A DNA stretch of 64,000 nucleotides, taken from assembly GCF_003790525.1 (NCBI RefSeq), contig NZ_CP033635.1. One strand, given 5' to 3'. Position 1 is the first letter of the stretch. The number at the start of each line of letters is the position of its first letter. Both the position numbers and the translations under genes were made by a program. Positions 516 through 28,640 of the stretch are shown piece after piece. The DNA comes from Escherichia coli. Lineage in GTDB: Bacteria; Pseudomonadota; Gammaproteobacteria; Enterobacterales; Enterobacteriaceae. The notes under the pieces were generated by a model, which was given only the letters and a program-made list of their open reading frames with translations, was not told the origin of the DNA and ran no database searches.

Positions 516-574
516 GTTGGATCCTTACCGGTAAATCGTGCCGGTTAAAAGCGGCGTGAAGATGGGGAATCTTA

Positions 575-925
575 AGTTCCGTAAACCGGGTGCCAGACGC
601 CGGATGCAGCCTGCATACGGGCACAAACATAAAAATATGTGCGAACTCGTAGGCCTGATAAGACGCGTCAGCGTCGCATCAGGCGTTGTGCACCGATAGC
701 CGGATGCGGCGTAAACCCTTATCCGGCCTACAAACGGGCACACCCATAAAAACAGGCGCGGACCCGTAGGCCTGATAAGACGCGTCAGCGTCGCATCAGG
801 CGTTGTGCACCGATAGCCGGATGCGGCGTAAACGCCTTATCCGGCCTACAAACGGACACACGCATAAAAACAGGTGCGGACTCGTAGGCCTGATAAGACG
901 AGACAGCGTCGCATCAGGCACCGAA
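575..925. repeat. REP/BIME array: about 2.5 tandem copies of a ~120 bp unit containing oppositely oriented REP palindromes (gccggatgcggcgtaaacgccttatccggcctac / gtaggcctgataagacgcgtcagcgtcgcatcaggc)
   Basis: Direct reading: near-identical units repeated between lfgK and lfgJ. Confidence 0.9.
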
Positions 926-935
926 CGTCGGAGCC

Positions 936-1235
936 TCATTTATGCTTCGGCGACAACTGCTTCACAATCATCGCCGCAATCCCAATCCCGTGCTGCTGCG
1001 CCAGGGTGTTACACAACTCATCGTCATAAAACCCCTGCATCATGCGCACCGAATCGCTGTTAAACGGGTTATCTTTCGAATCAAACAACTCGTTGGTTTT
1101 ACGCATCTCTTTCAGCATGTTGCGTAAAAAAATCGCCTCAAACTGCTCCGCGGCCTGCTTAATATCATTGGCCTGAACCTTCGGCCCCATTAACGCATCG
1201 CTGCCATCAATCCCGCCGCTGGCGTTCACTTTCAT
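936..1235 (-). CDS. lfgJ: Rod-binding protein, FlgJ N-terminal-domain-like (no muramidase domain)
   Basis: 99 aa ORF; start overlaps lfgI stop (ATGA); resembles the FlgJ rod-binding domain. Confidence 0.75.
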   Translation of the reverse strand: MKVNASGGIDGSDALMGPKVQANDIKQAAEQFEAIFLRNMLKEMRKTNELFDSKDNPFNSDSVRMMQGFYDDELCNTLAQQHGIGIAAMIVKQLSPKHK

Positions 1236-2350
1236 CAGATCACCTCCAGGTCGGCATCCAGCGCGCCCGCCTCATGCAGCGCCTGTAAAATCGACATAAT
1301 GTCGTCCGGCGTCGCGCCCAAACTGTTCAACGCATTGACCAGCGTTTTCAGGCTGCTCGACTCCGGCAAACTCACCACGCCCGGGCGCGCATGATTCACC
1401 GCGATATTGCTCTGCGGCGTTACCGCCGTGCGCCCGCCTGCAAAGGCATTCGGCTGGCTGACGTTGCTGGTTTCGTTAATCGAGACGGTCAAACTGCCGT
1501 GCGACACCGCCGCCGCATGCAGCGCAACGCCATCGCCCATCACCACCGTGCCGGTACGCGAGTTAAACACCACGCGGGCGCGGATTTTCTCTGCCTGCAC
1601 CTGTACATCATCCAGTTGCGACATAAATGCCACCCGCGCGCCGGGGCTGGTGGGCGCGCGCACGCTGACGTTGGTGGAGCTCTGCGCAGTAGCAATGCCG
1701 CCAAACGAGGCATTAATCGCCGCCGCAATATTGTTGGCATCTTTAAACGACGGACGTTTCAGGTTGAGGGTGATAGTGTCGCCCATCTGAAAATCGCTGG
1801 GGATCTCGCGCTCTACCGTTGCGCCGTTAGGAATTAACCCGGCGGTTGGCGTATTAACCGTTACGCTCGAACCGCTGGCCCCGGTGGCATTCATCCCGCC
1901 CACCACCACGCTGCCCTGCGCCAGGGCATACACTTCGCCATCCGCGCCGTGCAACTGGGTCAGCAACAAAGTGCCGCCACGAATACTTTTGGCATCGCCA
2001 ATCGACGAAACGGTGACATCAATGGTCTGCCCGCGCGAGTACATCGGCGGCAGCGTGGCGCTCACCGCCACCGCGGCGACGTTTTTCACCTTCGGGTCGA
2101 TTTTATTCGGCAGTTGCACGCCAAACTGGCGCAGCATATTGGTGATGGTCTGGTTGGTGAATTTGACCTGGTTTTTATCGCCCGTGCCGTCGAGGCCGAC
2201 CACCAGGCTGTAGCCGACCAGTTGGTTTTCACGCACGCCCTGTACGTTGACCAGCGATTCCAGCGATTGCGCCAGCGCCACGCCAGGTAGCGCCAGGCTC
2301 ACGGTGATTACTGCGGCCTTTATCCAGTTTTGCATTGCACTCTCCGGCAT
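1235..2350 (-). CDS. lfgI: Flagellar P-ring protein FlgI
   Basis: 371 aa, N-terminal signal peptide, FlgI-like sequence throughout; start overlaps lfgH stop. Confidence 0.92.
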
Positions 2351-3015
2351 TAAATCGGGAACAGAGGATGGTTAAACAGCCGCGTCAACCAGCCTGCGGC
2401 GTTGGCGTCGCTTAACGCGCCGCGTCCGGCATAGGAGATGCGGGCATCGGCGATCCGCTGGGAGGAAACCGAGTTGTCGTTCTGGATGTCGTCGGCGCGC
2501 ACCAGGCCGCTTAAGCGGATGTACTCATCGCCCTGGTTGAGGGTCAGCCATTTTTCGCCGCGAATTTCCAGGATGCCGTTAGGCTGCACCGCATGGACGG
2601 AAACGGTGATCTCCCCGCGCAGGCTGTTCTGCTGCTGGGAAGTGGCACTGCCGTCAAAGTCGCGGTTGGCGTCGATAGAGCCGGAAAGCTTATCTTTGGT
2701 GTGTCCAAAAATCGTTGGCGCGCCGATATCGACGGTGTTGCTTTTGCCGAAGTTGGTTTTCGCCTGTTTGCTCGACTGGGTGGATTCTTCGAGGATCACC
2801 GTCAGGATATCGCCCACGCGGTAAGCCCGCCGGTCGGCAGTTAGCGACCAGTTGTAGCCGGTTTCAAACACGCCCCCGGCACGCCCGTCTGCCGGAGGCG
2901 GCGCTTCGGTGGTTGGTGGCGCAAAGTATGCGTCGTCTTTTTTGACCAGAATGGCCTGCGATTCACACCCGCTAAGCAGGGGAAGCAGCGCCACCAGCCA
3001 GAGATAATTTTTCAC
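2350..3015 (-). CDS. lfgH: Flagellar L-ring lipoprotein FlgH (likely GTG start at 3015; ORF track extends to 3090)
   Basis: FlgH-like; lipobox LLSGC after a hydrophobic signal segment. Confidence 0.88.
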
Positions 3016-3039
3016 GTTCTGCCTGTTTAAATACAGTGA

Positions 3040-27856: not shown

Positions 27857-27869
27857 GTATCCGGCATCT

Positions 27870-27960
27870 GCGCACAACCGCCGGATGCGGCGTGAACGCC
27901 TTATCCGGCCTACCGTTCAGGCACGATTCGTAGGCTAAGCGTAAGCGCATCCGGCATCGG
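27870..27960. repeat. REP elements flanking rayT
   Basis: gccggatgcggcgtgaacgccttatccggcctac and a second REP-like palindrome. Confidence 0.85.
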
Positions 27961-27967
27961 CGCGCAA

Positions 27968-28465
27968 TTATACAATGATACGCTCCCCGGCACTAAAATC
28001 CGTTACGTCCCCCGCCCAATCGATGGGATATAACCCCTTCGCGACATCGCGATGAAACGTTGAGAATGGCCAATCACTCACTTGCTTTACCCAGCCATGT
28101 TTTACTGGATTTATATAAATATAATCAACATGATGGCGATAGTCTTTGGTATTGCGGATGGCGTGCTCCCAAAAACGCGGTTGCCAGATATTTTGCAATC
28201 CACAAGCATGGGTGAACTGTTTTTTAATCTCCCGCCAGCGAGAGGAAAAATCATCATCGCTTTCGGGTAATGTCCAGATACAGTGCATATGCTCCGGCAA
28301 AACTACCCAGGCGTTAATTTCAAAAGGTCTGGCTCGCTTAACGTTAATAATGACTTTACGGAGCATCTGGAACTGAGCGGTCAGAAGATGGCTTCGACGA
28401 TTTCGTAGGTTAACCGTGAAAAACCAGGTTCCCCCTTTGATGTAATAACGACGATATTCAGACAT
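27968..28465 (-). CDS. rayT: REP-associated tyrosine transposase RayT (YafM), IS200/IS605 TnpA-like
   Basis: 165 aa; matches the RayT/YafM sequence as recalled; flanked by REPs. Confidence 0.9.
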   Translation of the reverse strand: MSEYRRYYIKGGTWFFTVNLRNRRSHLLTAQFQMLRKVIINVKRARPFEINAWVVLPEHMHCIWTLPESDDDFSSRWREIKKQFTHACGLQNIWQPRFWEHAIRNTKDYRHHVDYIYINPVKHGWVKQVSDWPFSTFHRDVAKGLYPIDWAGDVTDFSAGERIIV

Positions 28466-28549
28466 GGCGACTCCTTTTTCTCAACGGTAAGAAGAAAAGG
28501 AAAGGTCGGCAATGAGGTGATGGAATAACGGGAAAGCGGCTCGCATAAA

Positions 28550-28640
28550 CGCACAGATTTGTAGGCATGATAAGACGCGCCAGCGTCGCATCAGGCATCG
28601 GTGCACAATTGCCGAATCCGGCGTGAACGCCCTCTCCGTC
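28550..28640. repeat. REP pair (BIME) flanking rayT
   Basis: gtaggcatgataagacgcgccagcgtcgcatcaggc ... gccgaatccggcgtgaacgccctctccgtcctac. Confidence 0.85.

Follow-up and report, generated by a model that had tools for sequence, protein, structure and literature searches.

Repetitive extragenic palindromes (REPs) of Escherichia coli are imperfect palindromes of 29 to 37 nt with an AA/GC mismatch bulge, and come in three types, y (35 nt), z1 (29 nt) and z2 (37 nt) (Corneloup 2021). They combine into bacterial interspersed mosaic elements (BIMEs), and the Rfam family naRNA4 (RF02564) models one z2-s-y unit of the BIME-2 form. The REP-associated tyrosine transposase (RAYT) of the species, RayT or TnpAREP, is an HUH/Y1 enzyme of single-strand DNA that binds the hairpin of the GTAG strand and cuts at an adjacent CT, with Y115 as the catalytic residue; cleaving and joining of single-stranded REP DNA has been shown in vitro for the K-12 protein only (Corneloup 2021). 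Its gene, known in E. coli as yafM, is bounded by BIME-2 on both sides (Nunvar 2010), and some E. coli genomes are without a RAYT gene and hold fewer REPINs (Park et al. 2021). For one tandem array, REP325, experiments have shown that it acts as an attenuator depending partly on Rho and that it stabilises the mRNA upstream, altering neighbouring mRNA 3- to 10-fold at its own locus (bioRxiv 10.64898/2026.03.23.713779). The lateral-flagella gene cluster Flag-2, which has lfhA and lafU as its ends, has been the subject of a comparative genomic study in which REPs are not mentioned (De Maayer 2020). Here we describe the REPs and BIMEs of Flag-2 and the adjacent rayT gene in a 64,000-nt stretch of an E. 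coli chromosome (contig NZ_CP033635.1), hereafter the window.

The repeats of the window belong to the standard E. coli REP families (y, z1 and z2) and are arranged in known mosaic forms; the feature is one already known, and its layout and class are textbook E. coli biology. We hold with high confidence the reading developed below as a whole, namely that Flag-2 carries ordinary REP/BIME mosaics together with a REPtron around rayT, that the repeats are insertions, and that they likely play a role as RNA hairpins.

REP families and BIME mosaics of the Flag-2 cluster

REPs were detected by an alignment scan with a GTAG-anchored consensus and by nhmmer with a hidden Markov model (HMM) made from the window copies, complemented by TRF for tandem arrays, the naRNA4 model of Rfam 15 (gathering score 59.5), hairpin folding and a terminator scan. 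The consensus scan returned 14 matches in the window against none in each of 20 shuffles, and nhmmer returned 13 strong REPs (E-values 1e-12 to 5e-6) plus three degenerate ones. All six sites that an earlier note on this DNA had listed as carrying REP-type palindromes were confirmed, within a few bases of the coordinates given there, and its assignment of the repeats to REP families passed formal search with the HMM and naRNA4. Its description of the repeats as punctuating the Flag-2 operons also holds, with REPs found after lfgF, lfgG, lfgJ, the Flag-2 glycosyltransferase gene and lfhA. Inside 545-28640, the HMM search found no REP beyond the listed sites; three more lie outside this interval, at 57748-57784, 57822-57852 and 60191-60224. 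The repeats are as follows (dG, folding free energy).

599-614, minus strand: y REP truncated by a 17-nt internal deletion, its head changed from GTAG to GCAG, at a position where strains L003 and L004 have an intact y
615-920, both strands: BIME-2 array, in which a 34-nt linker, z2 (plus), s and y (minus) occur twice and are followed by a 34-nt linker and z2 (plus) (TRF, nhmmer, naRNA4, folds)
649-685, plus strand: z2 REP of the array (nhmmer, as for the next four)
697-731, minus strand: y REP of the array
766-802, plus strand: z2 REP of the array
815-849, minus strand: y REP of the array
884-920, plus strand: z2 REP of the array
3053-3089, plus strand: single REP between lfgG and lfgH (nhmmer 35.8 bits; dG -19.0, z-score -4.9)
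3918-3952, minus strand: single y REP between lfgF and lfgG (nhmmer 43.4 bits; dG -20.9)
12715-12813, both strands: BIME-1 (RIP/RIB), with z1 at 12715-12744 (minus), a 34-nt L linker and y at 12779-12813 (plus) (nhmmer, alignment)
27853-27866, plus strand: collapsed REP remnant (GTAGG..TATCCGGCA), the TAG of which serves as the stop codon of lfhA, assigned with low confidence from sequence reading and a weak nhmmer match at 27859-27867
27879-27913, minus strand: y REP, intact, between lfhA and rayT, GTAG head toward rayT (nhmmer 41.6 bits; dG -21.1)
27930-27956, plus strand: z1-like REP, degenerate, with 4 nt deleted from its 5' arm and the hairpin lost (3' arm only, nhmmer 7.3 bits; fold z-score about 0)
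28561-28644, both strands: BIME-2 pair on the yafL side of rayT, with z2 at 28561-28597 (plus), an s linker and a degenerate y at 28610-28644 (minus) (nhmmer 32.1 and 29.8 bits; naRNA4 60.4 bits)

Genes were taken from the RefSeq record NC_010498.1 (E. coli SMS-3-5), which is 100% identical to the reverse strand of the window, so that a position in the record equals 283042 minus the window position. The genes that adjoin the repeats, and a promoter candidate discussed below, are these.

515 (start), minus strand: lfgK
548-574, minus strand: sigma-28-type promoter candidate for lfgK, TAAG-N15-GCCGCTTT
936-1235, minus strand: lfgJ
2350-3015, minus strand: lfgH
3098-3883, minus strand: lfgG
3962-4699, minus strand: lfgF
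10260-12704, plus strand: Flag-2 glycosyltransferase gene
25763-27856, plus strand: lfhA
27968-28465, minus strand: rayT (yafM/tnpAREP), intact, 165 aa (RefSeq, PDB 4ER8, NF047646)
28641-29390, minus strand: yafL

The canonical copies fold as a hairpin headed by GTAG, in which a 2x2 AA/GC bulge separates a 7-bp lower stem from a 4-5-bp upper stem with a 4-nt loop, with a dG of -13 to -22 kcal/mol and z-scores of -3 to -5, and their lengths in the window (y 35 nt, z1 30 nt, z2 37 nt) are those of REP palindromes. The GTAG head is present in all 13 strong copies, the truncated copy at 599-614 having GCAG, and the hairpin is lost in the decayed copies at 599-614, 27930-27956 and 28610-28644. The naRNA4 model exceeds its gathering score at 652-728, 769-846 and 28564-28641, always on the minus strand, with 75 and 88 bits on the units of the array. 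As expected of REPs, the family is dispersed and of high copy number, being found in 5425 of the 5426 complete E. coli genomes that all our strain-level counts cover, at no fewer than 5 to 58 matching places in each. Every copy in the window is intergenic and two overlap merely a stop codon: that of yafL is the TAG in the GTAG head of the degenerate y at 28610-28644. The stop codons of yafL (28641-28644) and lfhA (27853-27857) thus fall within REP heads, and the repeats abut or overlap the gene ends.

The array between lfgJ and lfgK was delimited by TRF at 609-919, with a period of 117, 2.6 copies and 91% matches. This period, the strand order +,-,+,-,+ and the naRNA4 matches identify it as a BIME-2, a class bound by gyrase; its linkers are 34 nt head-to-head and 10-12 nt at the tail. 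Of the interval 575-925 that had been read as the array, the part at 575-598 proved not to be repeat and lies directly upstream of the lfgK promoter candidate. A Flag-2 promoter variant, TAAG-N15-GCCGYTTT, was derived from cross-genus conservation: upstream of lfgK, TAAG-N15-GCCG(C/T)TTT occurs with identical spacing in four genera, including Citrobacter, Pseudescherichia and Leminorella. The copy at 548-574, 32 nt upstream of the lfgK start codon, is its sole exact match in the window and probably is the LafS (sigma-28-type) promoter of lfgKL; a search of the window for the canonical sigma-28 consensus, TAAA-N14-16-GCCGATAA, gave no match. Repeats, of whatever kind, always lie between the lfgJ stop codon and this promoter candidate.

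The two single REPs follow lfgF and lfgG. That at 3053-3089 combines a y-type lower stem (GTCGGAT/ATCCGAC) with a z2-type upper stem and is kept in ST131, SWHEFF_68 and other strains, while the lfgF-lfgG copy is missing in SWHEFF_68 (26-nt gap) and in Citrobacter-type Flag-2 (17-30-nt gap). Beyond the glycosyltransferase gene, the BIME-1 at 12715-12813 holds one y and one z1 head-to-head around an L linker with a putative site for integration host factor (IHF), ATTCAATACATTG at 12754-12766, which has 1 mismatch to the IHF consensus. The IHF motif alone is not enriched across the window (61 matches against 47 expected) and was counted because it is present in the linkers of both BIME-1 elements of the window; the second of these, at 57748-57852, aligns with the first, linker core included. 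IHF is said to bind elements of the BIME-1 class. Copies of about 84% identity occur 1 to 6 times per genome in 5380 of the 5426 genomes. The element sits in the strain-variable glycosylation region of Flag-2, and its context (window 12400-13300, at least 80% coverage) is common to 129 of the 5426. After it, at 12830-14400, come two strain-specific hypothetical genes; at the equivalent place SWHEFF_68 has IS3 and ISAs1 transposases.

The rayT junction and REP content across strains and genera

The product of the intact rayT gene is 93% identical to the TnpAREP of PDB 4ER8 (E = 7e-111), keeps the H-M-H motif and Tyr115, and scores 175 bits against NCBIfam NF047646 (cut-off 80), which identifies it as a Y1 HUH RAYT. 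The gene is single-copy, and the SMS-3-5 allele has about 92% DNA identity to the common one. REP pairs lie on either side of it, as the earlier note had stated, and the intact y at 27879-27913 (minus) and the z2 at 28561-28597 (plus) both head toward the gene, giving the inverted flanks of a REPtron. This y is orthologous to REPs of the K-12 REPtron, and K-12 has an intact z2 at the position of the degenerate copy at 27930-27956. The placement of the Flag-2 boundary at this junction likewise stands, lfhA being an end gene of Flag-2 and its C-terminal fragment adjoining rayT in K-12, where the order in W3110 is lafU', lfhA' (the C-terminal fragment), four REPs, rayT, two REPs and yafL.

The slot between yafL and lfhA (window 27857-28640) is itself variable. 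It holds rayT with BIMEs in 3574 of the 5426 genomes, the toxin-antitoxin pair hicAB without REPs in 1480 (27%) and neither in about 370. In the "empty" slot, a 97-nt gap, the last 13 nt of the y REP and a short GGGGCGAGGG palindrome remain.

The comparison of copy number among strains that had been proposed to follow up the repeats showed that REP content differs at every site. Flanks of the lfgJ-lfgK spacer were found in 1275 genomes, and insert lengths were determined in a spread sample of 58 Flag-2-positive genomes, with the following result.

7 nt: 1 genome, empty
80 nt: 1 genome
91-105 nt: 48 genomes, one y+z2 pair
119 nt: 1 genome
169 nt: 3 genomes
219 nt: 1 genome
336-337 nt: 3 genomes, the SMS-3-5 type

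At the sequence level, these states include one pair with a 13-20-nt linker and three pairs with a period of 97 (88COLEC); the form with a period of 117 was seen in SMS-3-5 and WL297. The REPs at lfgF-lfgG and lfgG-lfgH are unchanged in length in most Flag-2 genomes, with variants of +68, +100, +121 and -53 nt. Across the whole cluster, ST131 has 23 REPs at 10 sites, SMS-3-5 has 14 at 8 sites, and SWHEFF_68, which is without rayT and otherwise 98.5-99% identical to SMS-3-5, has 7 at 5 sites.

REPs are not the only repeats at lfgJ-lfgK. In SWHEFF_68 (locus L005, 267-471) and Pseudocitrobacter vendiensis an inverted repeat of about 140 nt, GC-rich and boxC-like, occupies the spacer, which has no REPs, and E. 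whittamii has a collapsed remnant of this repeat. Two unrelated repeat families hence share one insertion point, directly upstream of the lfgK promoter candidate.

Comparison across genera was made by one scan of genome contigs with LfgG as the query. Loci with 96-100% protein identity, from other Escherichia species, Pseudocitrobacter and a Citrobacter-labelled metagenome-assembled genome, have the same REP sites. Orthologous loci of Citrobacter, Pseudescherichia, Leminorella and Enterobacter, by contrast, have no REP at lfgF-lfgG (17-30 nt) or lfgJ-lfgK (69-104 nt); because these genera are REP-free there, the REPs at both places are insertions specific to the Escherichia-type cluster. Taken together with the strain comparison, the Flag-2 REPs are insertions into ancestrally short spacers and are present, absent or amplified depending on the strain. 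At lfgG-lfgH, other genera carry unrelated GC-rich hairpins (REP-like palindromes in Citrobacter, a palindrome in Leminorella and a terminator-like hairpin in Enterobacter), which is mild evidence that a hairpin after lfgG may be useful. The same spacer in loci L021 and L022 (L022, 5338-5700) has a tandem unit with a 122-nt period, 3 copies and 96% matches. This unit resembles a REP (GTAGGCACGATAAG...CGCATCGGGCA) interrupted by an inserted palindrome some 60 nt long (GTGGACGG...CCGTCCAC), and may be a nested element.

The remainder of the window is ordinary where RNA genes are concerned, with a complete rRNA operon (16S, 23S and 5S, with spacer and distal tRNAs) at 44915-50135 on the minus strand, the 23S leader of which matches StyR-44, and a further tRNA gene apart from it at 36694-36767 (minus). 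Two toxin-antitoxin gene pairs, dinJ-yafQ (yafQ at window 29.6-30.2 kb) and yafNO (yafO at locus L013, 13945-14344), each include a toxin gene, yafQ and yafO, respectively, that is annotated as a frameshifted pseudogene in SMS-3-5.

Proposed role of the repeats and alternative readings

By analogy with REP325 and with the mRNA-stabilising intra-operon REPs of malE-malF and other operons, the Flag-2 REPs are most likely RNA hairpins that stabilise the mRNA upstream of them and damp read-through. RayT would seed REPs at new sites, and arrays would then grow or shrink through local tandem duplication, deletion and recombination. Once transcribed, in the lfgB-J transcript and other Flag-2 transcripts, a REP would form a stable bulged hairpin right after the stop codon; the spacers between stop codon and REP measure 8 nt (lfgG), 9 nt (lfgF), 10 nt (glycosyltransferase gene, up to the start of the BIME-1), 15 nt (lfgJ) and 22 nt (lfhA). 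Such a hairpin would block 3'-to-5' exonucleases, stabilising the upstream segment, and might partly terminate or attenuate read-through with the assistance of Rho. The mRNA ends protected in this way would be those of lfgF, lfgG and lfgJ. The lfgJ-lfgK array would keep the lfgB-J operon insulated from lfgKL, a unit with a separate promoter of the sigma-28 type, and the two intra-operon REPs would skew expression toward lfgF and lfgG. REPs at most 15 nt from a stop codon reportedly also lower translation.

Several observations weigh against this reading. Sites are empty in natural strains (lfgJ-lfgK in E14 and E. whittamii, lfgF-lfgG in SWHEFF_68), and because such empty alleles occur, none of these REPs is indispensable. 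Two of the four REPs that flank rayT are decayed, which makes it doubtful that RayT currently acts on its own flanks. The effects of REPs depend on context, and terminal REPs are not generally tied to longer mRNA half-lives (bioRxiv 10.64898/2026.03.23.713779). Finally, a regulatory role in the Flag-2 of SMS-3-5 is argued wholly by analogy with REP325 and malE-malF.

A different account would have the REPs be neutral, selfish passengers, brought by RayT or by recombination into the few non-essential spacers of a cluster that is rarely expressed and often decaying, with no regulatory effect. It draws on the polymorphism of each site in presence and copy number, on the empty alleles that persist in E. 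coli, on the boxC-like repeat that replaces REPs at lfgJ-lfgK in some strains, and on the decay of several copies. Flag-2 has moreover been lost from most E. coli (the 1275 genomes that keep the lfgJ-lfgK region being a minority of the 5426), and REP sites are about four times as frequent in it as in the sampled background, as would be expected under relaxed selection against insertion. However, a transcribed hairpin of -20 kcal/mol placed 8-10 nt past a stop codon is unlikely to be inert, given the 3- to 10-fold effects of REP325, and the lfgG-lfgH REP is kept across divergent E. coli lineages, with an analogous hairpin in other genera. Neutral insertion is plausible for individual sites; as an account of the whole set we consider it rather unlikely.

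The abundance of REPs near rayT could alternatively reflect local seeding. In the region comprising Flag-2 and rayT (SMS-3-5 record 254402-294540) we counted 8 REP sites in 40.1 kb against 1.9 expected, an approximately 4-fold excess (Poisson P ~7e-4) in a test that was post hoc and had as background 11 sites in 235 kb from five segments of the same genome; when the two rayT-flanking sites are left aside, 6 REP sites remain. The excess is confined to the Flag-2 side of rayT, the window from 28.7 to 64 kb being at background density. A second clue is the 34-nt head-to-head linker of the array, which occurs in only 572 genomes, with all six copies whose position was checked lying at one of two Flag-2 sites. 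It is found at lafA-lafB in ST131 and SCU-484 (up to 5 units), and at lfgJ-lfgK in SMS-3-5, WL297, strain 382634_2f and the cryptic-clade strain MOD1-EC7003 (12 REPs; locus L022, 7859-8544). The lfgJ-lfgK spacer of SMS-3-5 and the lafA-lafB spacer of ST131 (locus L016, 35577-35830) share a two-unit block of 241 nt at 94% identity, with the two linker variants in the same order and the block inverted relative to the genes. This similarity implies that the block was transferred between the sites, with gene conversion between inverted BIMEs and mobilisation of the whole unit as candidate routes. We had considered the linker to be specific to lfgJ-lfgK, an idea that was dropped as most carriers have it at lafA-lafB, and we set aside a recent conversion of the SMS-3-5 array from lafA-lafB, since the cryptic clade has a 12-REP long-linker array at lfgJ-lfgK and transfer may have run in either direction.

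It is tempting to speculate from these data that the adjacent rayT, with a preference for targets close by, was the local source of the Flag-2 REPs, and that RayT moved the 34-nt-linker BIME-2 block between lafA-lafB and lfgJ-lfgK by single-strand transposition. The density next to rayT, the restriction of the linker to two Flag-2 sites and the shared inverted block all point that way. Yet the other side of rayT is at background, so that the enrichment is not simply a function of distance; the Flag-2 strain E2865, in which hicAB replaces rayT, still has REPs; the copied block can be accounted for just as well by gene conversion between inverted BIMEs 5 kb apart; no signature of a target site was found; and the statistics are post hoc with five background segments. 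Local seeding is therefore, in our view, improbable. We think it quite improbable also that Flag-2 is a true REP hot-spot in which a composite BIME-2 block (34-nt linker, z2, s and y, twice) is mobilised as an inverted unit between lafA-lafB and lfgJ-lfgK, although, if this were so, natural strains would supply evidence that in E. coli RayT mobilises entire BIME units locally and not REPs one by one.

That the palindromes are mere intrinsic (Rho-independent) terminators of the Flag-2 operons and belong to no repeat family, as GC-rich hairpins at the 3' ends of genes might suggest, can be rejected with near certainty, since a T-run follows none of the REP hairpins, the HMM and naRNA4 both assign the sequences to a repeat family found throughout the genome, and the terminator scan made no call at the REPs, its one weak site on the transcribed strand (767-752) lying within a 34-nt linker.

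The reading of the Flag-2 repeats as inserted REPs with a likely hairpin role mainly confirms textbook knowledge, in that REPs and BIMEs occur as markers of gene 3' ends, and that rayT lies between BIME-2 pairs at the edge of Flag-2. The length of the lfgJ-lfgK spacer is thereby explained, and the spacer is seen to precede a promoter candidate of lfgK that is conserved and of the sigma-28 type. REP content is moreover the chief source of length variation among Flag-2 alleles, which is relevant to typing, engineering and expressing Flag-2, and the natural allelic series at defined sites (empty, one pair, up to 12 REPs, boxC-like) could be used to test REP copy number against operon polarity.

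Comparison with known systems

The closest match of the array in K-12 is REP325, between yjdM and yjdN. Both arrays alternate z2 and y with a tail-to-tail s linker, are tandemly amplified and lie between two co-oriented genes. They differ in extent and spacing: REP325 has 12 REPs and a 17-nt head-to-head linker, with a period of 100, 5.8 copies and 96% matches, whereas in the window array a 34-nt linker spaces 5 intact REPs and a truncated one, with a period of 117 and 91% matches. In Escherichia sp. MOD1-EC7003 the lfgJ-lfgK spacer reaches 794 nt and carries 12 REPs with a period of 118, 5.8 copies and 94% matches. The window array is less regular than either of these and also shorter, and the impression recorded in the earlier note that it is unusually regular was accordingly not borne out, regular tandem amplification being the defining habit of BIME-2.

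The rayT locus is likewise a variant of the K-12 REPtron, with which it shares the gene, the yafL-lfhA slot, the REP types, the heads facing the gene and the z2 variant GGCATGAT. In K-12 the lfhA side carries 4 intact REPs and the yafL side 2, whereas in SMS-3-5 either side has 1 intact and 1 decayed REP. The BIME-1 after the glycosyltransferase gene shows no notable difference from the described BIME-1/RIP/RIB elements, with z1 and y head-to-head around a 34-nt linker in which ATTCAA-N4-TTG forms the predicted IHF site. Lastly, the REPs after lfgF and lfgG resemble those of the malE-malF type in being intra-operonic, 8-9 nt past the stop codon.

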